Assembly (NCBI GenBank): GCA_018897435.1
Contig: JAHIKI010000049.1
Span: forward strand, 1 to 60,036
Reading direction: 5' to 3'
Source of the DNA: Acidobacteriota bacterium
GTDB taxonomy: Bacteria > Acidobacteriota > Aminicenantia > UBA2199
Length of the DNA stretch: 60,036 nt
Part shown: positions 40,204 to 60,036 of the stretch, piece after piece
How positions within the stretch are numbered: the first letter of the stretch is position 1
Layout: every line of letters starts with the position of its first letter
The notes under the pieces: model-generated
Database searches by the model: none
What the model saw: only the letters and a program-made list of their open reading frames with translations
Told to the model about the DNA's origin: nothing
Made by a program: the position numbers and the translations under genes

Positions 40204-42690
40204 ATGTCCTACCTCGAAATCATAGACGCTCACAAGCATAACCTGAAGCACCTGCACCTGCGCCTGCCCAAAAAACAATTGATCGTGATCAGCGGCGTTT
40301 CGGGATCGGGCAAATCCACCCTGGCTTACGACACGATCTTCCAGGAAGGGCAGCGCAAGTACCTGGAGTCACTTTCCGCCTATGCCCGCCAATTCATCAA
40401 GTCCCTGGAGCGGCCCGAAGTCCAATCAATCAAGGGCATCGCCCCCACCATCTCCATCGACCAGAAGCACTCTTCCTTTCACTTCAACTCCACGGTGGGC
40501 ACGATCTCCGAGATCGCCCCCTACCTGCGGCTGCTTTTTGCCAGGCTGGCCGAGGCCCATTGCCCGCAGTGCGGCGACAGAATCAGCCGCTACTCGGTTG
40601 AAAAAATCGGCCAGGCCATTTTTAGCCGGTTTTCAGGAAAGCTGGTCCAACTCTTCAGCCCGGTGGTGCGCGGCCGCCGCGGCCATTACCAGGCATTATT
40701 CGAAAAATACCGCAAGCGCGGCTTCCTCAAAACACTGGTCAACGGCAAGGTGCATTATCTGGACGATGTTCCGCTTCTGGACCGCAATAGCCGCCACCAT
40801 ATCGCGGTGCAGATCGATGCCGTTGATGTCGAGTCCGCCAACCGTGAGCGCGTCGCCGCCAGCGTCACCCTGGCACTGAACGAAGGCAACGGTGAGCTCT
40901 TGGTCCGCTGCCAGGGCCAGGATACGTTTTTTTCCAACCGCCTGCACTGCCCCCGCTGCGATATTTCCTTAAGCGAACCCCAACCCGGGACCTTTTCCAG
41001 CAATTCTCCCGAAGGGGCCTGTCCTGATTGCCTGGGCACCGGCCAGAGCGGCGAAGACCGCTTGTGCCCGGTATGCACCGGGGCCAGCCTGAAGCGCGAA
41101 AGCCTGGCTTTTTATTTTCGCGGCAAAAACATTTATGAATTGGGAGAAATGGAGATCGCCGACCTGCTCGATTTTTTCAAAGCAGTGCGCCTCTCCCTAA
41201 GCGAAAGCGGGGTCGGCCGGCCGCTGCTGCCGCACATCATCCAGCGTTTGCAATCCTTTGTCACCTTGAACCTGGGTTACATTTCACTGAACCGCAGGAT
41301 CAACACCATTTCCGGTGGAGAACTGCAGCGCGCCCGCCTGGTTTCCCAGCTGGGTTTCAGTTTGAGCGGCATCATTTACATTCTGGATGAGCCCTCCATC
41401 GGCATGCACTTTTCCGAACAGCTCAACCTGCTCGGTATCCTGCGTCAACTGCGCGAAAAAGGCAACACCCTGATCGTGGTCGAACATGATGAGGAGACCA
41501 TCCTCGCCGCCGATACCATCGTGGATATCGGCCCCGGGGCCGGTGAGTGGGGCGGTGAGATCATGTATGCCGGCCCCCTGGGCGGTTTTGCTGCCGCTGA
41601 AAACTCCCTGACCTCAGCCTATGTGTACGGCCGCCGTCGCATCGCGCCGTCCCAAATACGTAGAACCGCGGCCGCCGCTTTCCTCAACATCGCCGGAATT
41701 ACCCTGAACAACCTGAAAAACGTTCACTTGAAAATTCCCTTGAACCGCCTGACCGTGGTCAGCGGAGTTTCCGGGTCAGGGAAAAGCTCCCTGATCATCG
41801 ATGCCCTGGTGCCGATCCTGCGCCGGGAATTGGCAGGCCTGCCCCTGGCCGATTCCAGGCTGGCCTGCGGAGCGTTAGCCGACCTAAACGGCATCAAGCG
41901 GGTGCTGATGGTCAACCAGTCGGCCATCGGCAAGAATTCGCGCTCCTGCCCGGCCACATATATCGGCGTCATGGCCATGGTGCGTGACCTTTTCGCCGCC
42001 CTGCCCGAAGCCAGGGTCAGGGGTTATGCCTCGGGACGCTTCAGCTACAACGTGCGCGGCGGCCGCTGCGAGGCCTGCCAGGGTATGGGGGTGCAAAAAC
42101 TGCAGATGAGCTTCCTGCCGCTGCTGGAGATCACCTGCCCGGTCTGCGAAGGACGGCGCTACAATTCCGAAACGTCCCAGGTCAAGTTCAAGGGCAGCTC
42201 CATCGCCGATGTGCTCGACCTGACGGCCAGCGCAGCGTTCGAACTTTTCGCCAATATCCCGCCGCTGGCCCGCAAGATTCGCATCCTGCTCGATGTCGGA
42301 CTGGGCTACCTGCGCTTGGGCCAGAGTTCGCAAACCCTTTCCGGCGGCGAATCGCAGCGCATCAAGCTGACCAAGGAACTGGCCCGCCTGTCGGGTTCTC
42401 CCACTGTTTATGTGCTGGACGAACCCACGGTCGGGCTGCATTTTGATGACGTGCGCAAGCTGATCGATGTGTTCCAGGCCCTGATCGGGCGCGGCCACAC
42501 CGTGGTGGTCATCGAGCACAACCAGGAAATGATCAGGGTGGCCGATCACCTGGTCGACCTGGGGCCGGGGGGCGGCAAGAACGGCGGCAAGATCGTTTAC
42601 CAGGGGGATGTCCAGGGCATTGTCAAGTGCAAGGGGTCAATTACGGGGAAGTATCTGAAGAAAAAGCTAATGAAGCCTGAGCTGTCGTGA
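40204..42690 (+). CDS. uvrA: UvrA-family excinuclease ATPase, short form lacking the insertion domain
   Basis: Two ABC modules (GVSGSGKSTL twice, LSGGELQR and LSGGESQR) and zinc modules CPQC, CPRC..CPDC, CPVC and CEAC..CPVC. It is 828 aa against about 940 for canonical UvrA. Confidence 0.85.
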   Translation: MSYLEIIDAHKHNLKHLHLRLPKKQLIVISGVSGSGKSTLAYDTIFQEGQRKYLESLSAYARQFIKSLERPEVQSIKGIAPTISIDQKHSSFHFNSTVGTISEIAPYLRLLFARLAEAHCPQCGDRISRYSVEKIGQAIFSRFSGKLVQLFSPVVRGRRGHYQALFEKYRKRGFLKTLVNGKVHYLDDVPLLDRNSRHHIAVQIDAVDVESANRERVAASVTLALNEGNGELLVRCQGQDTFFSNRLHCPRCDISLSEPQPGTFSSNSPEGACPDCLGTGQSGEDRLCPVCTGASLKRESLAFYFRGKNIYELGEMEIADLLDFFKAVRLSLSESGVGRPLLPHIIQRLQSFVTLNLGYISLNRRINTISGGELQRARLVSQLGFSLSGIIYILDEPSIGMHFSEQLNLLGILRQLREKGNTLIVVEHDEETILAADTIVDIGPGAGEWGGEIMYAGPLGGFAAAENSLTSAYVYGRRRIAPSQIRRTAAAAFLNIAGITLNNLKNVHLKIPLNRLTVVSGVSGSGKSSLIIDALVPILRRELAGLPLADSRLACGALADLNGIKRVLMVNQSAIGKNSRSCPATYIGVMAMVRDLFAALPEARVRGYASGRFSYNVRGGRCEACQGMGVQKLQMSFLPLLEITCPVCEGRRYNSETSQVKFKGSSIADVLDLTASAAFELFANIPPLARKIRILLDVGLGYLRLGQSSQTLSGGESQRIKLTKELARLSGSPTVYVLDEPTVGLHFDDVRKLIDVFQALIGRGHTVVVIEHNQEMIRVADHLVDLGPGGGKNGGKIVYQGDVQGIVKCKGSITGKYLKKKLMKPELS

Positions 42691-42812
42691 TGAGTAATGA
42701 GTGATAAGTGATGAGAAACTGCATTGGAACGAAATATCCGCAAGATTCTTTTCTTTCTCATAACTCATCACTAAAGATCGCTGAGTTCGTTCACTCATCA
42801 CTCAGCCGAGTC
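42685..42812. repeat. heptad-periodic hairpin element E8 (GTGATGA type)
   Basis: Left arm CGTGATG AGTAATG AGTGATA AGTGATG AGAAAC contains the uvrA stop codon. Right arm is TTCTTTTCTTTCTCATAACTCATCAC. A linker TAAAGATCGCTGAGTTCGT is followed by TCACTCATCAC. Confidence 0.85.
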
Positions 42813-46671: not shown

Positions 46672-46822
46672 ACGGTATACGGTTGACGGAAGAAAAAGAT
46701 TCAAATCCAAAGCTGCAAATCAGTGATAGTGATAGTGGTAGCGGAAATACATATTGATCGAATTTATATTTCGGATTTTTTGTTTTCCTAACACTAACAC
46801 TAACACTAACACTAACACAGTT
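46660..46822. repeat. hairpin element E9: unpaired GGTATAC-type left arm plus a hexamer-periodic inner hairpin
   Basis: GGTATAC GGTAGAC GGTATAC GGTTGAC GG spans the cobB stop codon. The inner arms are GTGATA GTGATA GTGGTA and (TAACAC)x5. Confidence 0.75.
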
Positions 46823-46869: not shown

Positions 46870-48915
46870 ATGCTAAAAAAGCTTCACAAACTCAACCTGG
46901 CCATTATCCTGTCGGCAGTAGCCGCCATTCTGGCTTACTTCTTTTTTCAGCCTGGCACTTTCCAGTTCTTCCTGTTGCTGACCATAATTCTCGCCTTTGT
47001 CCGCCTGCTGGGCATCATCCGCCGCCGCCTGCTCTGGAAGATCCGCAACCGGCTGATCATCTCTTCGCTGTTTTTCATCGTCACCCCCATCGTACTGATC
47101 ACGGTCTTTTTCTACCTGATCATCAACCTCATCATCACCCAGTACAACACGGCCATCTTCGAAAACCTGATGGTCAACGAGATCCGCTCCTTTGAAGAAA
47201 GCAGCGGCTATTACCTCGGCCTAGCCGACGATGTAAGGATCAAGCTCGAGGTGCAGCGTTTCAAAAACCGCAAGCCGCGTTTCCTGAACCTGGCTTTTTT
47301 CAAGGAGACGGACGGGCGCTACCAGGCGTTTTTTACCTATCCCGGGGACTTGCCCCTCGAGACATTCGATGCCAACGGCCCGCTGGCCAAGTTCCAAGCC
47401 GGCTATTTCAAGGTTGGCGGCGTTCTCTATCACGGCGTACATCAGCAGCGCGGCGGCTACGCGGCGCTGATTTTCGAGACCCTGAACCAGGAGTTTTTCG
47501 ACGCCATGCCGCCCATCGGCGACTTCAAGGTGCTGTTCATGGGTGCAGGCGGCAATACGCTCTCCGCCTCCTCGCAGGAGATGTCGGAGCGCCTCAACGA
47601 CAAGGATTTCGTCGGTTTCGAAAAATACCATTTCCCTTTTCCCTTCACCTTCCGCTTCTGGGATTTCGATGATCTGAAGAACGGGCAGCCCACCCTCAAG
47701 TTCAACATGTTCCTGCTGATCAACGACTATTCGAAGATCATGCAGAAACTGAAAACCTCTGACCGCGCCGCCATGCTGCAGGACCAGGCAAAGGTACTGG
47801 AAAAGGAGATCAGCCGCGGCGGCGACCAGGCTGCGCTCATGAGCAAAAGCCAGCAGTTGGACGAATTGAAAAAAGAACTTCAGGTGCTGCAAAAACGCGA
47901 CAGCCAGAGCTCGGTCTTTCCCATCTCGGTGCTGGTGCGTTTCATGCTCGGCCTGTTCGGCTTTTTCATTGTTATCTCCTTTTTCATCGGCTTGCGCATG
48001 GTGCGCGTCATCACCCGCGCCGTCAACGAGCTGACCAAGGGCACCGAAAAGATCCGCCGCGGTGATTTTTCCTACCGCATCCGCATCAAGTCGCAAGAGC
48101 AGATGCATTTCCTGGCCGAATCGTTCAATGACATGGCCTCCGGCATCGGCCGCCTGCTGAGCGAGGAAAAGGAAAAGCAGCGCTTGCAAGAGGAGCTGCG
48201 CATCGCCCGCGGTATCCAGCTGAAGCTGCTGCCCGCCGACCATTTCGCATGCCCGGAGTTTAACATCGCCGCGGTCAACATCCCGGCCACGGAGATCGCC
48301 GGCGATTATTTCGATTACTTTCACCGCCCCGGTAAATTCCTTTCGGTCCTGGTGGCCGACGTCTCGGGCAAGGGTGCCCAGGCTGCATTCTACATGGCCG
48401 AGCTGAAGGGCATCATGAACTGCCTGCAGAAGACCGGCCAGGAGCCGGCGGCCATCCTCAGCGAATGCAACGTCATCCTGCAGAGTTCTTTTGAGAAGGT
48501 CACCTTCATCACCATCAACCTGGTCCGTTTTGACCTGCAGAACAAGAACCTGATCTTTTCCCGGTCCGGCCACACGCCGGCCCTGTTTTACCAGAGCGAC
48601 AAGCAGGCCTGCCTGGAGCTGTCGCCGCACGGCATGGCCCTGGGGCTGAACAATTTCAGCCAGGAGGGCATCGAAGAGCTGCGTCTGCCATATCAAAGAG
48701 GCGATATCCTGTTCTTCTTTTCCGACGGTCTTTCCGAGATCATGAACCAGGAAGAGCAAATACTGGGCGTCGCCGAGTTGAAAAACATGCTGGTCGGCTA
48801 CGCCGCCCTTTCGGCGCTGGAGATCAAGGAGAAGATCCTGGCCCGGGCCATCGCTTTCGCCGCCGGCCAGGCCAACGCCGACGACCTGACCTTCGTGGTG
48901 ATGAAGGTTCGTTGA
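46870..48915 (+). CDS. membrane-bound PP2C-type phosphatase (HAMP + SpoIIE domains)
   Basis: N-terminal TM helices, a large extracytoplasmic region and a HAMP domain (LRMVRVITRAVNELTKGTEKIRRGD). The SpoIIE/PP2C domain has GDYFDY, DVSGKG and DGLSE. Confidence 0.85.
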   Translation: MLKKLHKLNLAIILSAVAAILAYFFFQPGTFQFFLLLTIILAFVRLLGIIRRRLLWKIRNRLIISSLFFIVTPIVLITVFFYLIINLIITQYNTAIFENLMVNEIRSFEESSGYYLGLADDVRIKLEVQRFKNRKPRFLNLAFFKETDGRYQAFFTYPGDLPLETFDANGPLAKFQAGYFKVGGVLYHGVHQQRGGYAALIFETLNQEFFDAMPPIGDFKVLFMGAGGNTLSASSQEMSERLNDKDFVGFEKYHFPFPFTFRFWDFDDLKNGQPTLKFNMFLLINDYSKIMQKLKTSDRAAMLQDQAKVLEKEISRGGDQAALMSKSQQLDELKKELQVLQKRDSQSSVFPISVLVRFMLGLFGFFIVISFFIGLRMVRVITRAVNELTKGTEKIRRGDFSYRIRIKSQEQMHFLAESFNDMASGIGRLLSEEKEKQRLQEELRIARGIQLKLLPADHFACPEFNIAAVNIPATEIAGDYFDYFHRPGKFLSVLVADVSGKGAQAAFYMAELKGIMNCLQKTGQEPAAILSECNVILQSSFEKVTFITINLVRFDLQNKNLIFSRSGHTPALFYQSDKQACLELSPHGMALGLNNFSQEGIEELRLPYQRGDILFFFSDGLSEIMNQEEQILGVAELKNMLVGYAALSALEIKEKILARAIAFAAGQANADDLTFVVMKVR

Positions 48916-49652
48916 TGGAAGAACTGGAAAAAAAACTGGGCTATCGTTTTAAGGATCGTGATCTGCTGCGCTCCGCTCTGACCCACAAATCGTTCAACGA
49001 AGGCGGCAAGAACCACGGCCTCGACAACGAGCGGCTGGAGTTCCTGGGCGATTCGGTTATCGGCCTGGTCATCACCGACTACCTGTACCGGCGCTGCCGG
49101 GACAACCGCGAGGGCGATCTGGCCAAGCTGCGCGCCCACCTGGTTTCGAGCAACCTGCTGTTCAAAGTGGCCAAGACCATCGGTTTGGGCGGCCACATCC
49201 TGCTCGGTCGCGGCGAGGAAAAGAACCAGGGCCGGCGCAATAGCAAGATCGTCTCCTCGTGCTTCGAAGGCCTGATCGGCGCCCTTTACCTGGATTCCGA
49301 CTTCGCTACCGCAACCGCGGTCATTGTCGAACGCTTCCGTGAATTCCTGGAGCAGCTGCTCAACAGCGAAATGCGCATCAACGACTACAAATCGGAGCTG
49401 CAGGAACTGATCCAGAAACACAAGAACATCCTGCCCGTTTACAAGGTGACGGCCGAGATCGGCAAGCCGCCCGACATGACGTTCCGTGTGGCCGTGTACC
49501 TGGAAAACAGCGAGATCGGCAGCGGTAGCGGCCGCAACCGCCGCGAAGCCGAGCAGGAAGCGGCATTGATCGCCCTGAAGAACATCGGCAATTTCATGAA
49601 TTTCGAAAAGCTGTCGGAAACGTTCTTCGCCGAAAAGCCCAAAGGCTCGTAG
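48912..49652 (+). CDS. rnc: ribonuclease III
   Basis: Signature NERLEFLGDSV, plus a C-terminal dsRBD (YKSELQELIQK...GSGSGRNRREAEQEAA). Confidence 0.95.
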   Translation: MMEELEKKLGYRFKDRDLLRSALTHKSFNEGGKNHGLDNERLEFLGDSVIGLVITDYLYRRCRDNREGDLAKLRAHLVSSNLLFKVAKTIGLGGHILLGRGEEKNQGRRNSKIVSSCFEGLIGALYLDSDFATATAVIVERFREFLEQLLNSEMRINDYKSELQELIQKHKNILPVYKVTAEIGKPPDMTFRVAVYLENSEIGSGSGRNRREAEQEAALIALKNIGNFMNFEKLSETFFAEKPKGS

Positions 49653-49750
49653 GAGCTCAGTGATTAGTAATTAGTGATGAGTGATTAGTTAAGAAATTAA
49701 ACGGAATTTACTGACTCTTTCTCTTTCCAGTCACTAATCATTTATTAAAG
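49653..49750. repeat. heptad-periodic hairpin element E10 (GTGATTA type)
   Basis: GAGCTC is followed by AGTGATT AGTAATT AGTGATG AGTGATT AGTTAAG AAA. The right arm TCTTTCTCTTTCCAGTCACTAATCA is short. Confidence 0.75.
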
Positions 49751-49752
49751 TC

Positions 49753-49781
49753 TTGCGAAATTTTTCCATTTTATTTAAAAT
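49753..49781 (+). promoter_or_regulatory. sigma70-type promoter TTGCGA-17-TAAAAT
   Basis: TTGCGA at 49753-49758 and TAAAAT at 49776-49781. SD GGAGG precedes the ATG at 49812. Confidence 0.5.
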
Positions 49782-49795
49782 AGAATAAATTTCGC
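49755..49795. promoter_or_regulatory. perfect 9-bp inverted repeat bracketing the -10 (candidate operator)
   Basis: GCGAAATTT (49755-49763) and AAATTTCGC (49787-49795), separated by 23 nt that contain the -10. Confidence 0.45.
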
Positions 49796-49811
49796 AATAT
49801 GGAGGTACTGA

Positions 49812-50033
49812 ATGGCAACGAAGAAAGTAGTAAAAAAAGTGAAAAAAGCCGTGAAGCCGGTCTTGAAAAAGAAAGTGAACCCCGTGCTCAAGAAAAAAGC
49901 CAAACCTGTGGCCAAGAAAATCGAACGCTACGCCTGCGGGGTCTGCGGCCTAGTGGTGGCGGTGGACCAGGCCTGCGGCTGCGCTCATGTCCACAGGCTG
50001 ATTTGCTGCGCTAAGGTTATGAAGAAGAAATAA
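49812..50033 (+). CDS. Lys-rich tail fused to a desulforedoxin-like Cys4 domain
   Basis: The N-terminal 37 aa are about 45 percent Lys (KKVVKKVKKAVKPVLKKK). The C-terminus YACGVCGLVVAVD...LICCAKVM parallels desulforedoxin YKCELCGQVVKV...LVCCGEDM. Confidence 0.6.
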   Translation: MATKKVVKKVKKAVKPVLKKKVNPVLKKKAKPVAKKIERYACGVCGLVVAVDQACGCAHVHRLICCAKVMKKK

Positions 50034-50038
50034 AACGA

Positions 50039-50205
50039 ATTAGTCGTGATGCGTTATGCGTAATGCGTGATGAGCATGAAAATTAACAGATCTAATCGTG
50101 ATGCGTTATGAGAAACAGCATGCTTCGATATACTCAGAAAAATTCTTTTCTTTCACATCACGTATTACGAAGTTCTGGCAGTTCGTTCACGCATCACGTA
50201 ATATG
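50039..50205. repeat. heptad-periodic hairpin element E11 (GTGATGC type, bipartite)
   Basis: Left arm is CGTGATG CGTTATG CGTAATG CGTGATG plus CGTGATGCGTTATGAGAAAC. Right arm is ATTCTTTTCTTTCACATCACGTATTACG. A linker AGTTCTGGCAGTTCGT is followed by TCACGCATCACG. Confidence 0.85.
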
Positions 50206-50233
50206 AATAATTTCATCTATGGAGGCACCAACA

Positions 50234-50557
50234 ATGACTTATACTCACGCTGAACTAAAGAAAAAAACCGTAGCCGAACTGCGCGAGATCGCCAAAGGGA
50301 TCGAGCATGAAGCGGTGCAGGGGTACTCGCAGTTGAACAAGGAGCACCTCCTGGTCGCGCTATGTAAAGCATTGAACATCGATATGCACGAGCACCGCCA
50401 GGTGGTGGGACTGAACAAGGCCCAAGTCAAGACCAACATCCGCCACATCAAGGAAAAGCTCGCCGCGGCCATCGCCGCCCACGATCGCAAGCAGATCAAG
50501 TTCTGCCACCGCCAGATCCACAAACAAAAAAGGCAGATACACAAAGCCATGGTTTAG
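50234..50557 (+). CDS. small basic protein with Rho-N/SAP-like N-terminal motif
   Basis: 107 aa. LKKKTVAELREIAKGI resembles the Rho termination factor N-terminal helix-extended-helix. GGAGG lies 8 nt upstream of the ATG. Confidence 0.5.
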   Translation: MTYTHAELKKKTVAELREIAKGIEHEAVQGYSQLNKEHLLVALCKALNIDMHEHRQVVGLNKAQVKTNIRHIKEKLAAAIAAHDRKQIKFCHRQIHKQKRQIHKAMV

Positions 50558-50566
50558 AAGCGCGAA

Positions 50567-50785
50567 CGATTGTAATTAGTAATGAGTAATGAGTGATAAG
50601 TGATGAGTGATGAGTGATGAGAAACCGCTTTAAAACGAAATATCAACAAGATTCTTTTTCTTTCTCATTACTCATCACTAAAGATCGTTGATTTCGTTCA
50701 CTCATCACTATAGTTCGTAAGGTCTTCTTTCTCATCACTCATCACTGAAGATCGCTGAGTTCGTTCACTCATCACTGATCTGCGA
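50567..50785. repeat. heptad-periodic hairpin element E12 (GTGATGA type, right module duplicated)
   Basis: The left arm has 8 heptads, GTAATTA..GTGATGA GTGATGA GAAAC. The right module TTCTTTCTCAT(T)ACTCATCACT(A/G)AAGATCG(T/C)TGA(T/G)TTCGTTCACTCATCACT occurs twice in tandem. Confidence 0.85.
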
Positions 50786-50831
50786 ACTTTTGACTAGGTT
50801 TCTGCGTTTATAGATCTTAAGGAGGTTGCCC

Positions 50832-51566
50832 ATGAAACAGAAAGTGAAATATGTCTTTTTTATCATACTGCTGATGGTTTCTTTCCTGGCCGCCGAGGAA
50901 TACCAACAGAAGAGCGCCCGCAGCTTCACTTTGACCGCCTCCGGCAGCGTGGATCTGGCCAACATCAACGGCGAGATCGAAATCACCACCACCTCCGGCC
51001 GGACCGTGAACATCAAGGTCGTGAAAAAGTCCGACTACAAGGGCGAGATCGAGAACGTGGAAATCATCTTTGAGGCCGACAAAGACACCCTGAAGGTCAA
51101 TACCAAGTACAACAAGAAAAATACCAAGGCCAAGGTCGATTTCACCGTCTCCATCCCGGAAAAGCTCGCCCAGGCCGGGTTCAAATCGGTCAACGGCGAG
51201 ATCGACTGTTCTGGTCAATTCGCGGACCTGACGCTGAAGACCGTCAACGGCAAGATCGATTTCCAGGGTGAATTCCAGACCGGGACTTTCAAAACGGTCA
51301 ACGGCACCATCGAGATTGTCCAGGAGCCGCTGCTCAGCGGCGACCTGCGCGTCTCCACGGTCAACGGCACCATCGACATCGAACTCAACCGCAAGTCGGC
51401 TTTCGAGGTAGAAGGTCAGACGGTCAACGGCAGCATCGACAACGATTTCGGCCTGCAGGTCAGCCGCCACTTTATCGGCAGCTCTTTCAGCGGCAAGGTC
51501 AACGGCGGCGGCCACAAAGTCAAGCTGGAAACGGTCAACGGCAGGATCAAGCTCTCTAAGATCTAG
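50832..51566 (+). CDS. DUF4097-like beta-repeat protein (putative adhesin/LiaG-like)
   Basis: Signal/anchor peptide followed by repeated VNG(E/K/T/S)I(D/E) strands. AAGGAGG lies 7 nt upstream of the ATG. Confidence 0.7.
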   Translation: MKQKVKYVFFIILLMVSFLAAEEYQQKSARSFTLTASGSVDLANINGEIEITTTSGRTVNIKVVKKSDYKGEIENVEIIFEADKDTLKVNTKYNKKNTKAKVDFTVSIPEKLAQAGFKSVNGEIDCSGQFADLTLKTVNGKIDFQGEFQTGTFKTVNGTIEIVQEPLLSGDLRVSTVNGTIDIELNRKSAFEVEGQTVNGSIDNDFGLQVSRHFIGSSFSGKVNGGGHKVKLETVNGRIKLSKI

Positions 51567-51573
51567 TCGAAGT

Positions 51574-51730
51574 ATTCGTGATGAGTAATAAGTGATAAGT
51601 GATGAGCAGCGGCCAAGGATCGATCGAATGTAGTAACTCGCCACTTATCATGAAATTTCGATAACTTCAATTCATTGTTCACGTTAGATCGTTTATTATT
51701 CTTTCTCATTACTCATCACTCATCACGTAG
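51574..51730. repeat. heptad-periodic hairpin element E13 (GTGATGA type, long loop)
   Basis: Left arm is CGTGATG AGTAATA AGTGATA AGTGATG AG. The loop is about 88 nt. Right arm is ATTCTTTCTCATTACTCATCACTCATCACG. Confidence 0.8.
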
Positions 51731-51743
51731 TTTCTGCTTGCTT

Positions 51744-51772
51744 TTGAAAAATTAATTTCCTTTTGCTATAAT
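51744..51772 (+). promoter_or_regulatory. sigma70-type promoter TTGAAA-17-TATAAT
   Basis: TTGAAA at 51744-51749 and TATAAT at 51767-51772. GTG at 51783 and ATG at 51789 follow. Confidence 0.6.
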
Positions 51773-51788
51773 CGCCCCAGAGGTGACC

Positions 51789-52919
51789 ATGAGCATAACG
51801 GTCAAAGAAGTGCTGAACAAAAAAGACCTGAAAGCATTCGTCAAGCTGCCTTTTGCCATGTACAAGGACGACCCCATGTGGGTGCCGCAACTCATCCGCG
51901 ACGACATGGAGGTCTTCAACCGCGCCAAGAATCCGGCTTTCGACAATGCCGACGCCCGGCAGTTCCTGGCATACAAGGACGGTAAGGCGGTCGGGCGCAT
52001 CGCCGCCATCTTGAGCAGTGTTGCCAACCAGAAATACAACACCAGGAACCTGCGCTTCGGCTGGTTCGATGCTCCCAACGATCCCGCAGTGGCCGCCGCC
52101 CTGTTCAGGACCGTCGAGGCTTGGGCCAAAGAGTTGGGCATGGAGACGCTCACCGGCCCGCACGGCTTCTGCGACCTCGACCCCCAGGGCATGCTGGTCG
52201 AGGGTTTCGACCAACTTCCCACCATCGCCGGCTACTACAATTTTCCCTACTACCAGAAGCTGGTCGAAGATCTTGGCTTCCAGAAGGAGGTCGATTATGT
52301 CGAATTCCGCACCCATGTGCCGGAAATGTCGGCTTTTCCCGAAAAGCTGCTGCGCCTGGCCGAGCGCATCAAGGAGCGCGGCGGCCTGCGTGTGCTGAAG
52401 TTCGCCGCCAAAAAAGAGCTCCTGGGCCGCGCCGAGGAGCTGTTCCACCTGCTGGACGAGACCTTCGAGGAAATTTACGGCGCCGTGCCCCTGACCGAAA
52501 GGCAGATCCATTATTTCATCAAAAAATATTTTTCCTTCGTGGACAAGGACCTGATCCAGGCCGTGGTCAACGAGAAGGACGAGATGGTCGGCTTCATGAT
52601 CGCCATGCCCAACTTTTCGCGCGCCTTCCAGAAAGCCAGGGGCCGCCTGCTGCCCCTGGGCTGGTGGCACCTGCTGCGGGCCATAAAGAAGAACGACGTC
52701 CTGGATTTCTACCTGGCCGGCATCAAGAAAAACTACCGCGGCCAGGGGGTGGACCTGCTGATGGTGGTGGAAATGGCCCACAAGGCCATAGCCAAGGGCT
52801 TCCGCTACACCGAGAGCAACCAGGAGCTGGAGACCAACACCAAGATCCAGGCGCAGTGGAAATATTTCAATCCGGTCCAGCACAAAAGGAAAAGGATATT
52901 TAAAAAAGTGCTTAAATAA
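51789..52919 (+). CDS. GNAT-family N-acetyltransferase (long form)
   Basis: 376 aa. The C-terminal acetyl-CoA motif region is YLAGIKKNYRGQGVDLLMVVEMAHKA. The N-terminal family region is FVKLPFAMYKDDPMWVPQL. Confidence 0.7.
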   Translation: MSITVKEVLNKKDLKAFVKLPFAMYKDDPMWVPQLIRDDMEVFNRAKNPAFDNADARQFLAYKDGKAVGRIAAILSSVANQKYNTRNLRFGWFDAPNDPAVAAALFRTVEAWAKELGMETLTGPHGFCDLDPQGMLVEGFDQLPTIAGYYNFPYYQKLVEDLGFQKEVDYVEFRTHVPEMSAFPEKLLRLAERIKERGGLRVLKFAAKKELLGRAEELFHLLDETFEEIYGAVPLTERQIHYFIKKYFSFVDKDLIQAVVNEKDEMVGFMIAMPNFSRAFQKARGRLLPLGWWHLLRAIKKNDVLDFYLAGIKKNYRGQGVDLLMVVEMAHKAIAKGFRYTESNQELETNTKIQAQWKYFNPVQHKRKRIFKKVLK

Positions 52920-53054
52920 GGGAAGAGAGAGGGAAGAATTAGGGAAGAAAAAGGGAAGAGAGAGTAAGAAAGAAGAAGTTAATTGAAATTTTATCTTATT
53001 CTTACTTTGTCTTCCCTCATTTTTCCTTCTGCATTTCCCTCCTTCTTCCCTAAG
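52917..53054. repeat. heptad-periodic hairpin element E14a (GGGAAGA type), complete hairpin upstream of a 4HB gene
   Basis: Left arm GGGAAGA GAGAGGG AAGAATT AGGGAAG AAAAAGG GAAGAGA GAGTAAG AAAGAAG starts on the GNAT stop codon. Right arm is CTTACTTTGTCTTCCCTCATTTTTCCTTCTGCATTTCCCTCCTTCTTCCCTAAGG. Confidence 0.85.
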
Positions 53055-53065
53055 GAAAGGTTTCT

Positions 53066-53455
53066 ATGAATTGGAGAGATTTGCAAGTTTGGAAAAAGTC
53101 ACATTTATTGACCAAGCAAATTTATCAAATTACAAGGGGTTTTCCGAAAGAAGAAAGGTATGGATTGACCTCACAGATTCAAAGAGCTGCCTATTCTGTT
53201 CCACTCAATATCGTTGAAGGGCATAGCAGGAAAACTGCAAGGGAGTTTTTGCAGTATTTAAATATTGCACGTGGTTCCTTAGAAGAGTTACGGTATTTAT
53301 TGATGCTTGGATGTGAAATAGATTACATTTCGATTCCTGACAGGGAGAATTTGGAGAGTGCGGCCGCTGAGGTCTGTATCATGCTCGATGCCTTGATCAA
53401 ATCCTTGCAAAGAGGGAAAGCAAATCGAAGGAAAGTAGAGATATCGAAAAGTTAA
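53066..53455 (+). CDS. four-helix-bundle protein (23S rRNA intervening-sequence protein / Avd family), copy 1
   Basis: Family motifs L.VW, FPKEERYGLTSQIQRAAYSVPLNIVEG, EF..YL.IARGSLEEL. 129 aa. Confidence 0.9.
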   Translation: MNWRDLQVWKKSHLLTKQIYQITRGFPKEERYGLTSQIQRAAYSVPLNIVEGHSRKTAREFLQYLNIARGSLEELRYLLMLGCEIDYISIPDRENLESAAAEVCIMLDALIKSLQRGKANRRKVEISKS

Positions 53456-53463
53456 TGTATTCG

Positions 53464-53523
53464 CTTTTTCCTACTACTTCTTCCCTCATTCTTCCCTCCG
53501 GCTTTCCCTTTCTCTTCCCTTAA
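53464..53523. repeat. E14b: second GGGAAGA-type right arm downstream of 4HB copy 1
   Basis: CTTTTTCCTACTACTTCTTCCCTCATTCTTCCCTCCGGCTTTCCCTTTCTCTTCCCTTAA is about three-quarters identical by eye to the right arm at 52995-53054. Confidence 0.8.
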
Positions 53524-53810: not shown

Positions 53811-54033
53811 AGCTTGGCAGTGGATTTCTCCCTTTTTCAGCATGATTTTTGTAAAAGGTGTGTAAAATGACGAAAATTGGCTATTGCATTGACAATCCCG
53901 GTTGGGTATGTTATTGAAATAAGTGTTTTTTGGAGGTTGCAAAGGGACTATACTCATTTTGAACACCATCTTACCTCCAACCGCTTTTTCGCCTGCCTCG
54001 CTGGAAGCCCGCAAGGGTCAGCGGCGGCAGCTT

Positions 54034-54114
54034 AGTTTGAAGAAAGTAATTAGTTAAGAAAATAAAATGCTACGAAGAAAGTGATTAGTGATTAGTGATG
54101 AGTGATTAGAAAAG
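54034..54114. repeat. E15a: AGTAATT-type arm plus GTGATTA-type left arm upstream of 4HB copy 2
   Basis: AGTTTGAAGAAAGTAATTAGTTAAGAAAA is followed by AGTGATT AGTGATT AGTGATG AGTGATT AGAAAAG (54080-54114). Confidence 0.8.
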
Positions 54115-54115
54115 A

Positions 54116-54568
54116 ATAAACCGATCAATAATGATACAAGGCCACCGAGATCTGAATGTTTGGAAAAGAAGTATGGAACTGGTTGAGGATCTCTATCAAT
54201 GTACTAAGGACTTTCCGAAAGAGGAAATTTATTCCCTGACTTCCCAAATTCGCCGTTCTGTCGTTTCGATACCCAGTAATATTGCTGAAGGAGCTGCCCG
54301 AAATTCAAAAAAGGAATTTATCCAGTTTCTCCACATTGCCCTCGGGTCCACCTCAGAACTTGAAACTCAATTGATCATCTCGGGTCGACTGGGATATCTG
54401 AAAGAAACTTCTGGGCATCTGAACAAATTGGATGAAATCAAAAAAATGCTGCTGGGCCTCTTGTCATTTGTCAAAAAGAACAAATAAAAAATTGTCATAT
54501 GCATTTTCTCTTCACTCAGCACTCTTTCTCATCACTAATCACTCATCACGCATCACTTATAACCGATC
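54116..54568 (+). mobile_element. candidate insertion cassette (4HB gene plus one right arm) bounded by the direct repeat ATAA(A)CCGATC inside a hairpin loop
   Basis: ATAAACCGATC lies at 54116-54126 and ATAACCGATC at 54559-54568. Removing the interval leaves a canonical left arm-loop-right arm element. Confidence 0.35.
54131..54487 (+). CDS. four-helix-bundle protein (23S rRNA IVS protein / Avd family), copy 2
   Basis: DLNVWKRS, FPKEEIYSLTSQIRRSVVSIPSNIAEGAAR, EFIQFLHIALGSTSELETQL. 118 aa. Confidence 0.9.
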   Translation: MIQGHRDLNVWKRSMELVEDLYQCTKDFPKEEIYSLTSQIRRSVVSIPSNIAEGAARNSKKEFIQFLHIALGSTSELETQLIISGRLGYLKETSGHLNKLDEIKKMLLGLLSFVKKNK

Positions 54569-54620
54569 GAGGACTTATGTATTTTCTCATCACTCATCAC
54601 TCATCACTTATCACTTATAA
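54504..54620. repeat. E15b: two GTGATGA-type right arms downstream of 4HB copy 2
   Basis: CTTTCTCATCACTAATCACTCATCACGCATCACTT, then the linker ATAACCGATCGAGGACTTATGT, then ATTTTCTCATCACTCATCACTCATCACTTATCACTTATAAT. Confidence 0.85.
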
Positions 54621-56393: not shown

Positions 56394-56663
56394 ATGCACA
56401 ATCCTGAAATAACCAAATTCATCCACGAACACAGCCAGTATTTCTGGTATACCCCGGAGACTGAAAAGGAAAACATCAGCCCGGAATTGCTGCTGGAAAC
56501 CATATTGAATGATGGCGACATGGATGCCGTTCGCGAACTTTTCAAGGTCATGGGCATAAAAAACGCGGCCAGCGTGTTTTTCAGTGCTGCCGGCAGAAAA
56601 AAAATGAATTACTATCCCGAAATTTATCATTTCTTTTCACTGCTTTTCAAACGCCATGCATAA
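56394..56663 (+). CDS. small protein, putative partner (antitoxin?) of the downstream nucleotidyltransferase
   Basis: 89 aa. It overlaps the downstream AbiEii-like gene by 8 nt and has its own consensus promoter. I recognise no family. Confidence 0.5.
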   Translation: MHNPEITKFIHEHSQYFWYTPETEKENISPELLLETILNDGDMDAVRELFKVMGIKNAASVFFSAAGRKKMNYYPEIYHFFSLLFKRHA

Positions 56664-57270
56664 GGAAATCCTCAACACCGATCAGCTTGAGCTACTGGCG
56701 CTGGTGAGGAATTTTAAGCCCGAATTTTTCCTGGTGGGCGGCACGGCCATAGCCCTTCATATCGGTCACCGCCGTTCCAATGATTTCGATCTTTTTAAAA
56801 ACGGCGAATTGCGCCACAAAAAAATACTCGATACCGTAAAAACACACGGATTTCCGGTTCAGGTCACCCGCCGGGTAAGCGAACAGTTGAACCTGACAAT
56901 TAGTGGAGTGAAATTCACGTTTTTCGATTATCCTTTTCCCATAAAACCTGTTTGCGTGTTTGAAAACGTGATCGAACTTCCCGATATTTTGACTTTGGCG
57001 GCGATGAAGGCCTATGCTTTGAGCCGGCGTTCCAAGTGGAAGGATTACGTCGATCTGTATTTTATCATCAGGCACCATCATTCAATCGCAGAGATTTCCG
57101 CCAAAGCCGGCGCTATTTTCGGCGAACTTTTCTCGGAAAAAATGTTCCGGGCCCAATTGAGCTTTTTCGAAGACATCGACTTTACCGAGCCTTTGGAATA
57201 TTTGCCGCCCGCTGTTCCGGAAACTGTAATAAGGGAGTTCCTTGTCGAAAGGGCCACGGCGGTGATTTAG
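56656..57270 (+). CDS. nucleotidyltransferase, AbiEii/AbiGii toxin family (type IV TA-like)
   Basis: 204 aa. GGTAIALHIGHRRSNDFDLF matches the family's G-G-T-A...R.S.D.D nucleotidyltransferase core. Confidence 0.7.
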   Translation: MHKEILNTDQLELLALVRNFKPEFFLVGGTAIALHIGHRRSNDFDLFKNGELRHKKILDTVKTHGFPVQVTRRVSEQLNLTISGVKFTFFDYPFPIKPVCVFENVIELPDILTLAAMKAYALSRRSKWKDYVDLYFIIRHHHSIAEISAKAGAIFGELFSEKMFRAQLSFFEDIDFTEPLEYLPPAVPETVIREFLVERATAVI

Positions 57271-57302
57271 CCGGGATGAAAAGTAATTGAGAGAAAAAGT
57301 TA

Positions 57303-57491
57303 ATGCGCAATTCAAAACTAATTGCTAAAAAAAAAGAAAGGGAGATCCTGAAGTTGAGCAGGCTGACGCCGGAGGAACGGCTGAAAGAACAGGTAAAACT
57401 TAATGTCCGCATCAAAGAACTATTCTTTGCCGGCTTGAGCAGCAAGGGATTTTCCCGGACTGAGATCATCCGCTTGTGGAAGACAAAATGA
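57303..57491 (+). CDS. small basic protein, putative partner of the downstream nucleotidyltransferase
   Basis: 62 aa. Its stop overlaps the ATG at 57488 (ATGA). Confidence 0.4.
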   Translation: MRNSKLIAKKKEREILKLSRLTPEERLKEQVKLNVRIKELFFAGLSSKGFSRTEIIRLWKTK

Positions 57492-58024
57492 ACAAAACCA
57501 ATTTAGCGAAGATACTCAAGGCCTTTCACCTACTGAAGATCCCCTTTGCCTTGGCCGGCGGCCATGCTGTCGCGGCCTGGGGAGTTGTGCGCGCCACCCG
57601 GGATATCGACTTCCTGGCCGATGCCGCAGGCGAGCTGGCGGCCAAACTGGTCCTTGAGTTGAAAAAAGCCGGTTTTAGCCTCGTTTTCCGTAAGGGTGAC
57701 GAAGCAGATCCTCTGCGGGGAGTGATCCATGTGGAAATGAAAGGTTCTGCTGACGATGAGCTTGTGGACATCGTCCTGGGCATCCGGAACATGCCTCAGG
57801 GTATTTTCGAGCGATCTCTTGCGCTTGATTTTCTAGGCCTTGAGATCCCCACCGTTGCTCCCGAAGACATGATTATTCTCAAGTGCCTGGCCGGCGGTCC
57901 AATCGACCTGGAGGATGCGCGATCAATCCTTTTCATAATGAAGAAGCGTCTGGACATGAAATACTTAGAGCGAGAGTTGAAGCGCTGCCGGATTTCGCTG
58001 CAAAAGCTGGAACAAGGAAGATGA
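57488..58024 (+). CDS. nucleotidyltransferase-fold protein (MNT/DUF6036-like)
   Basis: FALAGGHAVAAWGVVRATRDIDFL is a minimal nucleotidyltransferase motif. An alternative start lies at 57476. Confidence 0.6.
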   Translation: MNKTNLAKILKAFHLLKIPFALAGGHAVAAWGVVRATRDIDFLADAAGELAAKLVLELKKAGFSLVFRKGDEADPLRGVIHVEMKGSADDELVDIVLGIRNMPQGIFERSLALDFLGLEIPTVAPEDMIILKCLAGGPIDLEDARSILFIMKKRLDMKYLERELKRCRISLQKLEQGR

Positions 58025-58164
58025 GAAAATGAGTAAATGTGGCAATCGCAATAGAATAGAACTATTGCTGTTCTCTTTTTTCATTTACCCTTCTACCCAT
58101 CTACCCTTTTACCCATTTACTTCTTTTCTCATCAACTCATCTACCCATTTACCCATCTACAAGG
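58020..58164. repeat. heptad-periodic hairpin element E16 (GGGTAGA type, short left arm and long right arm)
   Basis: The left arm GATGAGAAAATGAGTAAATGTGG covers the stop codon. The loop contains the hairpin GCAATAGAATAGAACTATTGC. The right arm has 11 heptads, TCATTTA CCCTTCT ACCCATC TACCCTT TTACCCA ... Confidence 0.8.
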
Positions 58165-58174: not shown

Positions 58175-59140
58175 ATGACAAAAACTGCTAAAAACTTCGC
58201 TCTCACCGGCGCTGCAGGCTATGTTGCTCCCCGCCATCTCCAGGCGATCCATGATACCGGTAACACTTTGGTCGCCGCTCTCGACCGTTCTGATTCGGTC
58301 GGCATTTTAGACCGTTTCTTTCCTAAAGCCAACTTTTTTACGGAGTTTGAGCGGTTCGACAGGCATATCGAGAAGTTGAGACGGCTGGGAGAGGGGAATC
58401 GCATCGACTATGTGTCGATTTGTGCTCCCAACTACCTTCATGACGCCCACATCCGCTTTGCCCTGCGTGTGGGAGCGGACGCGATTTGTGAAAAGCCGCT
58501 GGTGCTCAATCCCTGGAATATTGACGCATTACGGGAAATGGAGGAGGAGACGGGGCGCAGGGTGTGGACTGTTCTGCAATTGCGGCTCCATCCCGCCTTG
58601 AGAGAACTCAAGAAACAGGTTGAGCAAGCTCCTGACGGGAAAAAGCATGAAATCGACCTGACCTATATCACCTCCCGGGGGAGTTGGTATGCTGTCTCCT
58701 GGAAGGGAGATATCGAAAAATCCGGAGGGATCGCCACCAATATAGGCGTCCACTTTTTCGACATGTTGCTCTGGATATTCGGGCCATTAATCCGACTGGA
58801 GGTCCATCTGTCCACCCCGGAGAAGGCTGCCGGATTCATGGAATTGTCCAAAGCTCGGGTGCGTTGGTTTCTGTCGCTTGCTGCGGACGATCTCCCCGTC
58901 GGGTTCCTGGAGGCTAAGAAGTGCACCTATCGCAGCTTGACCGTAAATGGAAAGGAGACGGAATTCTCTGAAGGCTTCACAGACCTGCATACCGCTGTCT
59001 ATCGGGAGACATTGGGCGGCCGGGGCTTCGGCCTTGAAGATTCCCGCCCATCGATCCAGGTCGTCCACGATATCCGCCATGCAGTGCCAGTTGGTCTGAA
59101 AGGGGAGTATCATCCAATGGCGAAGATCGTGAAAGGGTAG
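58175..59140 (+). CDS. wbpB: UDP-N-acetyl-2-amino-2-deoxy-D-glucuronate oxidase (WbpB-like, Gfo/Idh/MocA family)
   Basis: Long collinear matches to P. aeruginosa WbpB as I recall it: NFALTGAAGYVAPRH, YVSICAPNYLH, DLTYITSRGSWY, TNIGVHFFDML, EFSEGFTDLHT. Confidence 0.8.
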   Translation: MTKTAKNFALTGAAGYVAPRHLQAIHDTGNTLVAALDRSDSVGILDRFFPKANFFTEFERFDRHIEKLRRLGEGNRIDYVSICAPNYLHDAHIRFALRVGADAICEKPLVLNPWNIDALREMEEETGRRVWTVLQLRLHPALRELKKQVEQAPDGKKHEIDLTYITSRGSWYAVSWKGDIEKSGGIATNIGVHFFDMLLWIFGPLIRLEVHLSTPEKAAGFMELSKARVRWFLSLAADDLPVGFLEAKKCTYRSLTVNGKETEFSEGFTDLHTAVYRETLGGRGFGLEDSRPSIQVVHDIRHAVPVGLKGEYHPMAKIVKG

Positions 59141-59305
59141 ATGGGTAGAAGGGTAGACGAGTAGACGGGAAAACGAGTAGACGAGTAGACGAGAAAACGA
59201 GAAGACGGGGAGCCGCAAAGTTCGATCTATTGAATTTTTCTCTTCTCTCATTCACTCGTACACTCGTTCACCGTTCCACCCTTCCACTCATTTACTCTAT
59301 TACCT
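59135..59305. repeat. heptad-periodic hairpin element E17 (GGGTAGA/GAGTAGA type) upstream of 4HB copy 3
   Basis: Left arm GGGTAGA TGGGTAG AAGGGTA GACGAGT AGACGGG AAAACGA GTAGACG AGTAGAC GAGAAAA CGAGAAG ACGGGGA covers the wbpB stop codon. The loop is CCGCAAAGTTCGATCTATTG. The right arm is TTCTCTTCTCTCATTCACTCGTACACTCGTTCACCGTTCCACCCTTCCACTC. Confidence 0.85.
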
Positions 59306-59309
59306 TAAA

Positions 59310-59672
59310 ATGATCGAACAAGTAAAAACCCACAAAGACCTAGACGTTTGGAAATTAGGTCTGGCATTTGTAAAAGATATCTATGTGGCTACCAAGAAAT
59401 TTCCACCTGAAGAAATGTATGGATTGACTTCGCAATTACGACGAGCAGCAGTTTCCGTCCCTACAAATATTGCCGAAGGTGCTGCAAAAAATACGAGGAA
59501 AGATTTCGTCAAATTTTTATATATCTCTTTGGGATCTCTCGCAGAGATCGAGACTTTACTATATATTTCTGAGTCGCTTAATTATTGTGAAATATCTTCA
59601 TTGATGGATTCAAGCACTCGAATTAGAATGAAGTTATTGAATTTGATTAAGTATCAAAAAAGTAAAATATGA
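59310..59672 (+). CDS. four-helix-bundle protein (23S rRNA IVS protein / Avd family), copy 3
   Basis: DLDVWKLG, FPPEEMYGLTSQLRRAAVSVPTNIAEGAAK, DFVKFLYISLGSLAEIETLL. 120 aa. Confidence 0.9.
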   Translation: MIEQVKTHKDLDVWKLGLAFVKDIYVATKKFPPEEMYGLTSQLRRAAVSVPTNIAEGAAKNTRKDFVKFLYISLGSLAEIETLLYISESLNYCEISSLMDSSTRIRMKLLNLIKYQKSKI

Positions 59673-60036
59673 AAATGAGTAAACGAGTTGACGAGTATAC
59701 GGGAAGACGAGAAAATGAGTAAACGAGTATACGAGAAGACGAGAAAATGAGTAAACGAGTATACGAGAAGACGAGAAAATGAGTAAACGAGTAGACGAGT
59801 ATACGGGTAAACGGGAAGCAGCAAAAGTTCGATCTATTGCGGTTTTCTCTTCCCTCGTCCACCCTTCCACTCGTACACCCGTTTACAAGCAAGCGTTTTC
59901 TCTTCCCTCGTCCACCCTTCCACTCGTACACCCGTTTACAAGCAAGCGGTTTCTCTTCCCTCGTCCACCCTTCCACTCGTACACCCGTTTACAAGCAAGC
60001 GGTTTCTCTTCCCTCGTCCACCCTTCCACTCGTACA
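59671..60036. repeat. hairpin element E18 with tandemly amplified arms, truncated by the window end
   Basis: The left side has about 4 tandem units of GAAAATGAGTAAACGAGTATACGAGAAGACGA (32-nt period in the middle copies). The loop CAGCAAAAGTTCGATCTATTGCGG is near-identical to the E17 loop. The right side repeats a 53-bp unit TTCTCTTCCCTCGTCCACCCTTCCACTCGTACACCCGTTTACAAGCAAGCG(G)T starting at 59845, 59898, 59951 and 60004. Confidence 0.85.

Follow-up and report, generated by a model that had tools for sequence, protein, structure and literature searches.

Element E11 of an Acidobacteriota contig belongs to a dispersed family of palindromes with tandem-repeat arms that may be mobile modules resembling rRNA intervening sequences

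The element considered here, E11, is an imperfect palindrome at positions 50045-50198 of a stretch of 60,036 nucleotides from an Acidobacteriota bacterium (contig JAHIKI010000049.1, assembly GCA_018897435.1), in the following called the window. It lies between two protein-coding open reading frames (ORFs) and has no ORF inside. The explanation towards which we lean, with modest confidence, is that E11 is an ORF-less member of a class of dispersed palindromes with tandem arms, which would be mobile “stop-and-fold” modules similar to the intervening sequences (IVSs) of 23S rRNA and which would have their arms kept matched mainly by copying at the DNA level. The unit of the arms is 7 nt, in some families 8 nt, and the class spans phyla. 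It looks like the IVS elements of 23S rRNA placed between protein genes because genes of the PF05635 family are usually enclosed by the same architecture. E11 is an ordinary member of its family, and the interest lies in the class which it reveals. Neither the link to PF05635 cassettes nor the stop-codon polarity of the arms, both described below, was part of the preliminary description of this DNA.

E11 is related to four other elements of the window, E8, E12, E1 and E4, and in alignments the homology extends past the arms. E8, E12, E1, E11 in its proximal part and E4 when reverse-complemented have a common architecture consisting of four xGTGATG heptads, the sequence GAGAAAC and a loop of about 45 nt, followed in the 3' half by TTCTTTTCTTTC, two heptads, a 21-nt linker ending GTTCGTTCAC and one final heptad. 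A strict regular expression for the family matched only E8 and E12, and a covariance model was used in its place. The model, which had E11 among the sequences it was built from, was run on the window and on seven syntenic loci of relatives (the relatives' loci are L204, L206, L207, L208, L210, L211 and L212; the syntenic ones carry a Rho_N protein which is 75-89% identical). It finds six copies in the window with scores of 41-122 bits and more copies in L204, L206, L207, L211 and L212; E11 obtains 89 bits, itself being in the training set. The sequence details which the preliminary description gave for E11 are all present at 50039-50205, and the kinship with E8 and E12 outside the arms which it proposed is borne out by the alignments and by the 89-bit score. 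That the likeness of E11 to E8 and E12 is due to chance in DNA of low complexity might be suspected, as the arms are simple repeats, and was named there as an observation that would overturn the proposal. We regard this as practically excluded: the motif GTGATGMG is found 36 times in the window where 3.6 are expected, with a maximum of 10 in 100 shuffles, so that the heptad motif is not a product of chance, parts outside the arms are in common, and the scores reach 89-122 bits.

The heptads of E11 have a C in the 5' arm and a G in the 3' arm at the position where the other members have A and T, the arm state of E8 and E12 being GTGATGAGT / ACTCATCAC. The joint change of both arms, A to C in the 5' arm and T to G in the 3' arm, had been seen correctly in the preliminary description. 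C-type copies are found in three related genomes (L207:4546-4656, L204:66-175 and L211:4338-4448). E11 and the copy in L207 have the linker signature ..CTGGCAGTTCGT.. in common, and a variant of it, ..CCTGAAAGTTC.., is found in the copy of L204 and in E4 of the window. The C/G form, which has its own linker signature, is a subfamily state inherited as a block and not a succession of compensatory changes that arose independently. E4 had been presented as an intermediate between the two states. It lies in the opposite orientation, and when it is read in the orientation of the family it turns out to be an uncompensated hybrid. E8 is placed so that its first heptad supplies the TGA stop codon (42688-42690) of a UvrA-like ORF of 828 aa (40204-42690), and therefore it overlaps or has replaced the original 3' end of that gene.

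Three ORFs of the window belong to PF05635/TIGR02436, the four-helix-bundle “23S rRNA intervening-sequence protein” (IVP, S23p), with PF05635 E-values of 6e-40, 1e-36 and 1e-33 and TIGR02436 scores of 112-132 bits at a cut-off of 24. The closest solved structure is PDB 2GSC (4.6e-27), which has five chains. PF05635/TIGR02436 is an uncharacterised family of at least several thousand members, and we know of no enzyme activity for PF05635. Each of the three ORFs stands between tandem arrays and the reverse complements of these, and the cassette at 54076-54618, whose protein scores 132 bits with TIGR02436, shares its AGTGATK heptads with the E family. PF05635 homologs were sought in metagenomes, which yielded 80 loci; the flanks were taken as 220 nt on either side and called complementary at a score of at least 16. 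Complementary flanks surround 57% of 75 PF05635 genes, compared to 4.6% of 130 other genes at the same loci. A tandem array is present within 200 nt upstream of the PF05635 gene in 64% of the cases and downstream in 67%; the corresponding numbers for control genes are 15% and 26%. The period of the arrays near PF05635 genes is 7 in 76 of 104, 8 in 21 and divisible by three in 7, and the unit differs from locus to locus (AGGGGCC, GGTGATG, CGTGACT, AGTGAAC and AGGTAAC are examples). The layout with PF05635 inside the hairpin is also found at loci of Planctomycetota and Verrucomicrobiota. IVP genes have the same orientation as both neighbours in 42 cases and are opposed to them in 4. The left junction GATGAGAAACAGCA is common to ORF-less copies and to the L212 ortholog of the second IVP cassette of the window, which suggests that forms with an ORF and forms without have arisen from each other. 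A species-level scan (one genome each) for four GTGAT-type heptads gave at least 120 loci; among the matches listed an IVP gene is present in 2 of these, both times inside the hairpin, and the hairpins are thus independent of a nearby gene. In the literature, which we covered incompletely, we found no report linking PF05635 genes to flanking heptad arrays or noting the stop-codon polarity of the arms.

Some further observations concern the surroundings of the cassettes. The window ends (59839-60036) in a 53-nt tandem repeat of 3.7 copies with 97% matches, and this repeat is the 3' arm of the last hairpin in multiplied form; PF05635 homologs are in many cases found on very short contigs, which suggests that such repeats break assemblies. 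A gene for a GFO/IDH/MocA oxidoreductase of 321 aa (58175-59140) lies between complementary 8-nt arrays, ten copies of CATCTACC and nine of GGGTAGAC; these arms (58078-58160 and 59129-59209) measure 73 nt, are separated by 976 nt and show 73% complementarity, so long-range pairing is not confined to PF05635 genes. Two genes for nucleotidyltransferases of the AbiEii/DUF6036 type (toxin-antitoxin-like) are found at 56656-58024 among the IVP cassettes of the polysaccharide locus. Upstream of a UDP-sugar dehydrogenase gene there is a leader of about 230 nt (53811-54045), partly kept in L204, L208 and L212, with a promoter-like TTGACA, a GGAGGT...ACCTCC hairpin and a terminus, GGCGGCAGCTTAGTT, similar to the ops/JUMPstart element GGCGGTAG known from polysaccharide operons; an IVP cassette is inserted directly after it.

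That the elements act in mRNA is argued mainly from the polarity of stop codons in the arms. Where paired arrays are at most 200 nt apart, GTGAT precedes ATCAC in 35 cases and the reverse order does not occur. The upstream arms of 47 IVP cassettes contain 203 stop triplets and 77 reverse complements of stop triplets, and they close all three frames in 28 of the 47; in the downstream arms the numbers are 65 and 197, and three frames are closed in 3 of the 47 (sign test on the polarity, p = 2.8e-6). With the composition held constant a stop is present in 38 of 51 upstream units, where 26.3 are expected, and in 15 of 53 downstream units, where 13.5 are expected. The 5' arm of E11 (50045-50072 plus 50097-50116) has 9 stops distributed over three frames and the 3' arm has none. 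The same is seen in most elements of the window, E11 included, when either strand is read: the 5' arm of both strands closes three frames and the 3' arm has few or no stops. Every frame is closed most simply if each unit has one stop and the period is 7 or 8, and judged from the sequence the 5' arm would halt ribosomes ahead of the stem, whichever direction the element was inserted in. Hairpins with 6-nt units and one mismatch per unit are found in the window at 46722-46818 (AGTGAT / CTAACA) and in L204 at 6783-6951 (GTGTTA / CTAACA); periods divisible by three, as here, are rare, and the stops of these hairpins are confined to one frame.

The model which we propose from these data is as follows. 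The element would be transcribed together with the neighbouring genes. The 5' arm, which carries about one stop codon per unit, would halt ribosomes in three frames, since its period is not divisible by three, and the arms would fold into a stem of 20-40 bp to be processed by RNase III as for the IVSs of rRNA. By analogy with these, the modules are probably RNase III substrates. As the element is palindromic it would work in either orientation. Its complementarity would be kept by slippage of units, by templated copying from arm to arm, by recombination between copies and by replacement of the whole element. A wider hypothesis, which we put forward as possible and with less conviction, is that PF05635/TIGR02436 genes are the cargo or a maintenance factor of palindromic cassettes which span phyla; the IVS would be such a cassette in rRNA, and ORF-less derivatives such as E11 would fill slots and be replaced fast. 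In this cassette hypothesis the units of 7 or 8 nt might, to put it tentatively, serve both to place stops in all frames on both strands and to fold into stems of the RNase III type.

The covariation between the arms of E11 and its relatives, which the preliminary description proposed to test in an alignment of all copies, depends on the number of copies available. In a nine-copy alignment the column pair of the spacer is AU in four copies, CG in four and unpaired in one (E4), and here the covariation is not significant, the overall score being matched by 227 of 500 shuffles. It is significant with 15 distinct copies from the window and the syntenic relatives, which were aligned with the covariance model in a structure-aware way and compared to 500 shuffles. 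Paired cells amount to 88.7% against 81.8 +/- 1.2% after shuffling, and cells altered on both sides to 34 against 15.3, values which none of the 500 shuffles reach. The number of pairs altered on both sides is 13 against 9.7 (reached in 9/500), and the covariation score is 0.280 against 0.170 (0/500), with slid controls giving 0.03-0.13. The sites which have been swapped are the spacer, from A:U to C:G, and heptad position 5, from U:A to C:G. The species-level scan covered Acidobacteriota, Planctomycetota, Verrucomicrobiota, Cyanobacteria, Chloroflexota, Bacteroidota, Xanthomonadales, Streptomyces and others, and many of its loci are hairpins that can be written as (GTGATNN)n - loop - (N'N'ATCAC)n, with NN varying by locus. 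The spacer dinucleotide is exactly complementary between the arms at 20 of 37 loci from many phyla (mean of 4.8 and maximum of 14 in 10,000 permutations) and compatible when transitions are allowed at 33 of the 37, with 11.8 expected. All three variable positions of the heptad match in 68 of 180 array pairs, where 8.8 are expected and the maximum in 5,000 permutations is 20. The inter-arm covariation is real and its principle extends across phyla.

As the cause of the covariation the preliminary description offered either selection for base pairing or copying of one arm from the other, and it proposed to compare G.U with A.C mismatches between the strands. This comparison gave no bias, and of the two causes copying is the one favoured. 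The arms of 43 PF05635 cassettes, for which the transcribed strand is known, have 1330 Watson-Crick pairs, 64 G.U, 61 A.C and 129 other mismatches, and in ORF-less hairpins within co-directional gene clusters there are 85 G.U and 69 A.C. A count of 29 versus 16 obtained on the covariance-model alignment is biased by the model and was not used. No folding advantage of the sense strand was found over 47 hairpins, for which the ORF calls were crude. One-sided transitions separate the near-identical genomes of L204 and L206, and L206 differs from L207 by one unit, a TCGTCAC heptad in one arm only, as expected from slippage. The arms are probably kept matched by copying, that is by slippage, template switching and element replacement. 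Copying is favoured because there is no strand bias, the C/G subfamily is inherited as a block, E4 is a hybrid, and one-sided changes and an indel in one arm occur; stepwise compensation fits poorly with the inheritance of the subfamily, with the one-sided changes and with the heptad indel in one arm. It should be noted that the elements are young, and for this reason the missing excess of G.U does not speak against a role of the RNA. Copying of one quasi-palindrome arm from the other as template is an established mechanism. It has reportedly been treated as template-switch mutagenesis, or “quasi-palindrome correction”, by Ripley in 1982, by the Lovett laboratory and by Monttinen and Loytynoja in 2022. 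The likeness to the present case is that one arm of an imperfect repeat is copied onto the other at the DNA level, giving apparent compensation without selection on RNA; the difference is that template switching is a mechanism and not an element, and for these loci it is a candidate only.

The same slots hold different elements in related genomes. The slot which in the window is occupied by E11 (CGTGATG / CATCACG) has AGTGACA / TGTCACT in L206 and L207, AGTGACA with an AAATTCC-type element nested in the loop in L204, AGTGATT and AGTGAAT in L208, and a PF05635 gene with CGTGACG / CGTCACG arms in L212. Between the gene for a 376-aa protein and the acylphosphatase gene five genomes have five different elements, namely an IVP cassette with AGGGAAG-type arms in the window, an IVP of 35% identity, which has GTTCGAA arms, in L212, a GTGTTA / CTAACA hexad hairpin in L204, an E8-type copy at a non-orthologous site in L207, and GGTAAAAG / CTTTTACC in L208. 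The second IVP of the window (54076-54618) has an ortholog in L212 which is 87% identical and has the same arms, and it is absent from L204 and L208. L210 is almost without elements; its gaps are 82-105 nt and give no match to the covariance model. The elements occupy the gap from the upstream stop codon to the conserved block with promoter or ribosome binding site (RBS) of the next gene. Two observations on nesting may be added. A GC-rich repeat family, CCCCCTTTA..AAGGGGGGTGGCGCAGCCGGGGGGATC ... GATCCCCCCTG..CCCCCCTTCGGTAAGGGGGG, is found in the loops of tandem-arm hairpins (window 27680-27800; L208 3447-3600 and 5400-5520). A composite hairpin of three levels, with CGGTAGA outside, AAGCACC/AAATTCC in the middle and a GGGTAGA type inside, is present at 33185-33507 of the window and recurs as a unit at a different slot in L204 (5226-5648), representing either nested insertions into loops or one complex element.

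E11 itself has an outer stem formed by 50045-50053 with 50190-50198 and an inner stem formed by about 50096-50115 with 50150-50172. The 5' arm is duplicated (50028-50063 versus 50080-50115, 78% identity), and the spacer beside GAGAAA is an uncompensated A.A. The RNA of the + strand folds with -46 kcal/mol (z -1.8), with both of the expected stems being formed, and that of the - strand with -42.3 kcal/mol (z -2.4). E11 is identical in three other assemblies. Its parts and its neighbours are listed in Table 1. The Rho_N gene as called starts at 50234, the shorter form, and an exact match for the long form is absent from the records. E11 is probably intercistronic, because a promoter-like site precedes the 73-aa ORF and no such site was found between E11 and the Rho_N gene. 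No intrinsic terminator, i.e., a GC-rich stem followed by a run of T, was found at any element in 49600-51900. An Rfam scan found no family at gathering score for E11, and the sub-threshold matches to miRNA-precursor models are read as generic long hairpins; in the whole window two tRNAs alone reach the gathering score, from which it follows that the window holds no rRNA.

Several points weigh against the model of mobile, IVS-like modules. In relatives the linker and loop, which are the asymmetric parts, have no constant orientation with respect to the direction of the genes. Neither a target-site duplication nor a transposase was found: there is no consistent direct repeat at E8 and E11, GCGAAC is seen at E12 only and orthologous sites other than those of L210 are occupied by other elements, and within the window, to which this search was limited, a single larger element has these arms, with a PF05635 gene in place of a transposase. 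The folding z-scores of E11 are modest, the excess of stops may come partly from the purine-rich 5' arms, and most hairpins are without an IVP gene. The alignment of 15 copies was fitted to the model's own structure, and these copies are related to each other. Selection on an RNA of one polarity is not demonstrated, because G.U is not in excess over A.C on the sense strand.

The alternatives must be weighed against the same data. E11 lies within a probable two-gene operon, the same slots directly after stop codons hold hairpins in most relatives, and the covariation of 15 copies is significant, all of which would suit an RNA hairpin with a cis-regulatory role for the host, be it as an intercistronic stabiliser, a processing site or a terminator, which arose in place, is maintained by compensatory substitution under selection for pairing and is neither mobile nor related to IVSs. 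We find this unlikely. Near-identical copies with the same loop and linker are found at unrelated sites and in other genomes, close relatives have unrelated elements in the same slot and L210 is without them, a terminator-like U-tract is missing, and neither the absence of a G.U/A.C asymmetry nor the uncompensated hybrid E4 agrees with it. The opposite extreme would be that the palindromes are purely selfish or accidental products of replication errors (slippage and template switching) with no role in RNA, the stop bias being a by-product of the purine-rich 5' arms. Such an origin is improbable in spite of the symmetric mismatch types, the polymorphic copy number of the heptads, in Coxiella too, and the rapid turnover, as it does not account for stop-containing units above the composition-matched expectation in the 5' arms only, for periods which are almost never multiples of three, for the co-orientation of IVP genes with their neighbours, or for the precise placement of the elements between a stop codon and the next promoter or RBS.

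It has also to be considered that the arrays are DNA-binding sites, either of regulators of the IHF/HU type or of a pentameric PF05635 protein, and that the arms covary by fitting one protein. Paired hepta- and octanucleotide sites in Geobacter metallireducens have been annotated as putative regulator sites (PMC2700814), arrays of 4-5 units would suit a pentamer such as the five chains of 2GSC, and divergent PF05635 proteins are found in cassettes with different units. At least 8 different units in 60 kb and dozens across the loci, with complementarity as the sole constant, speak against a common binding protein, as does the fact that most hairpins have no PF05635 gene nearby, and the strict order of the arms and their stop-codon bias would be left unexplained by binding to DNA. 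We give this possibility little credence.

Among known systems the S23p-type IVSs of 23S rRNA, as in Leptospira and Coxiella burnetii, are like the cassettes of the window in having a long inverted-repeat stem with a PF05635/S23p ORF in the loop and, ahead of the ORF, tandem heptamers in variable number together with a purine-rich run. Short forms of IVS without an ORF also occur in rRNA. The differences are that IVSs are located in helix 25 or 45 of 23S rRNA and the elements here between protein genes, that both arms here are multi-unit arrays, that E11 is without an ORF, and that cleavage by RNase III is here only presumed. E11 shares with IVSs a terminal-repeat stem of about 20 bp or more and has neither the 23S location nor the S23p ORF; an S23p ORF in the loop is found in the cassettes 54076-54618, 52915-53520 and 59240-59890. 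In C. burnetii the terminal inverted repeats of the IVS form a 28-bp stem, which RNase III cuts, and the loop contains the S23p ORF; GACAGAT heptamers, present in different numbers in different strains, come after a purine run (PMC4990558). In G. metallireducens classes 1-3 of the “predicted global regulator binding sites”, read as IHF/HU sites (Aklujkar et al. 2009, PMC2700814), are also intergenic arrays of 3-5 hepta- or octanucleotides, paired on opposite strands at variable distance and with several families per genome. E11 and about 18 other elements of the window answer to this description, of which Gmet_I301A/B is a published example. The differences are that G. metallireducens is of another phylum and that the link to PF05635, the covariation of the arms and the stop codons were not reported there.

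REP/BIME and REPIN-RAYT systems consist of dispersed extragenic palindromes with a protein gene between inverted copies of the same repeat, and the E family is like them in both respects; it differs in its variable tandem-unit arms and in the lack of a Y1 (RAYT) transposase, the flanked gene being TIGR02436 (132 bits). Short tandemly repeated repetitive (STRR) sequences of cyanobacteria are intergenic tandem heptamers which are described as direct arrays without function. They are similar to the arrays here, and cyanobacterial loci are among the matches of our scan; the pairing of complementary arrays and the link to PF05635 are absent from their description. The hairpins of Correia elements are transcribed together with neighbouring genes and cut by RNase III. 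Correia/NEMIS elements of Neisseria, like other miniature inverted-repeat transposable elements (MITEs), are short, dispersed inverted repeats without an ORF (review PMC3184786). The terminal repeats of Correia elements are fixed, with a length of 26 bp, and a TA duplication is present, in contrast to the elements here, where no target duplication or fixed terminus was found. The E family does have dispersed ORF-less inverted-repeat copies which are present or absent at orthologous sites (L210), as MITEs have, and no autonomous element encoding a cognate transposase was found in the window.

The nature and spread of the IVSs in 23S rRNA and the role of S23p have been a question for about thirty years. 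If the proposed model is true, IVSs would be one landing site of a far larger class of hairpin cassettes, found in mRNA spacers of many phyla, and this class would provide hundreds of natural variants for experiment. The model would also give a testable rationale for 7-nt repeats such as the STRR sequences of cyanobacteria and the paired sites of Geobacter: a stem preceded by units which each contain one stop and whose length is not a multiple of three. The lesson for annotation is that covariation of the arms in such repeats need not imply a structured regulatory RNA.

Table 1. Parts of E11, related elements, IVP cassettes and genes near E11, with their positions in the window.
Feature	Positions	Strand	Remarks
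E1	2997-3121	+	110 bits; directly upstream of tRNA-Arg
E4	28675-28800	-	121 bits; hybrid, A-type 5' arm with G-type 3' arm
E8	42683-42806	+	A-type, 120 bits
RNase III gene (rnc)	48915-49652	+	presumed stem-cutting enzyme, encoded in the same genome
73-aa Lys/Cys-rich ORF 5' of E11	49812-50033	+	promoter-like site 49753-49781
E11 distal 5' array	50045-50072	+	CGTGATG CGTTATG CGTAATG CGTGATG; heptad 1 pairs with 50190-50198
E11 spacer	50073-50096	+	24 nt, separates the two copies of the duplicated 5' arm
E11 proximal 5' array	50097-50116	+	CGTGATG CGTTATG and purine terminus AGAAAC; pairs with 50150-50169
E11 loop	50117-50141	+	25 nt, without ORF
E11 pyrimidine run	50142-50154	+	ATTCTTTTCTTTC; 3' end complements GAGAAA; common to E8 and E12
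E11 proximal 3' array	50155-50169	+	ACATCAC GTATTAC G, G-type spacers; zero stop codons on + strand
E11 linker	50170-50189	+	AAGTTCTGGCAGTTCGTTCA, 20 nt, ending CAGTTCGTTCA
E11 distal 3' heptad	50190-50198	+	CGCATCACG; closes the outer stem
Rho_N-domain ORF 3' of E11	50234-50557	+	RBS GGAGG 50221-50225
E12	50562-50782	+	A-type, 122 bits; seven 5' heptads, triplicated 3' arm
E13	51574-51731	+	41 bits; more distant member, longer loop
IVP cassette	52915-53520	+	AGGGAAGAAAG arms; PF05635 ORF 53066-53455
IVP cassette	54076-54618	+	AGTGATT/AGTGATG array, PF05635 ORF 54131-54487, two CTCATCA arrays
IVP cassette	59240-59890	+	8-nt units; PF05635 ORF 59310-59672; contig ends in repeated 3' arm

A perfect 11-nt inverted repeat, TTGCGAAATTT...AAATTTCGCAA, extends over the promoter-like site of the 73-aa ORF (49753-49797). 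It is kept in L206 and L207 and has the appearance of an operator.

Elsewhere in the window there is a type IV pilus cluster at 17270-24346 with the order pilB, pilT, pilC, pilS and pilR as in Geobacter, the names being given from the order and size of the ORFs. Close homologs of other proteins of the window are labelled Aminicenantes or Acidobacteriota.

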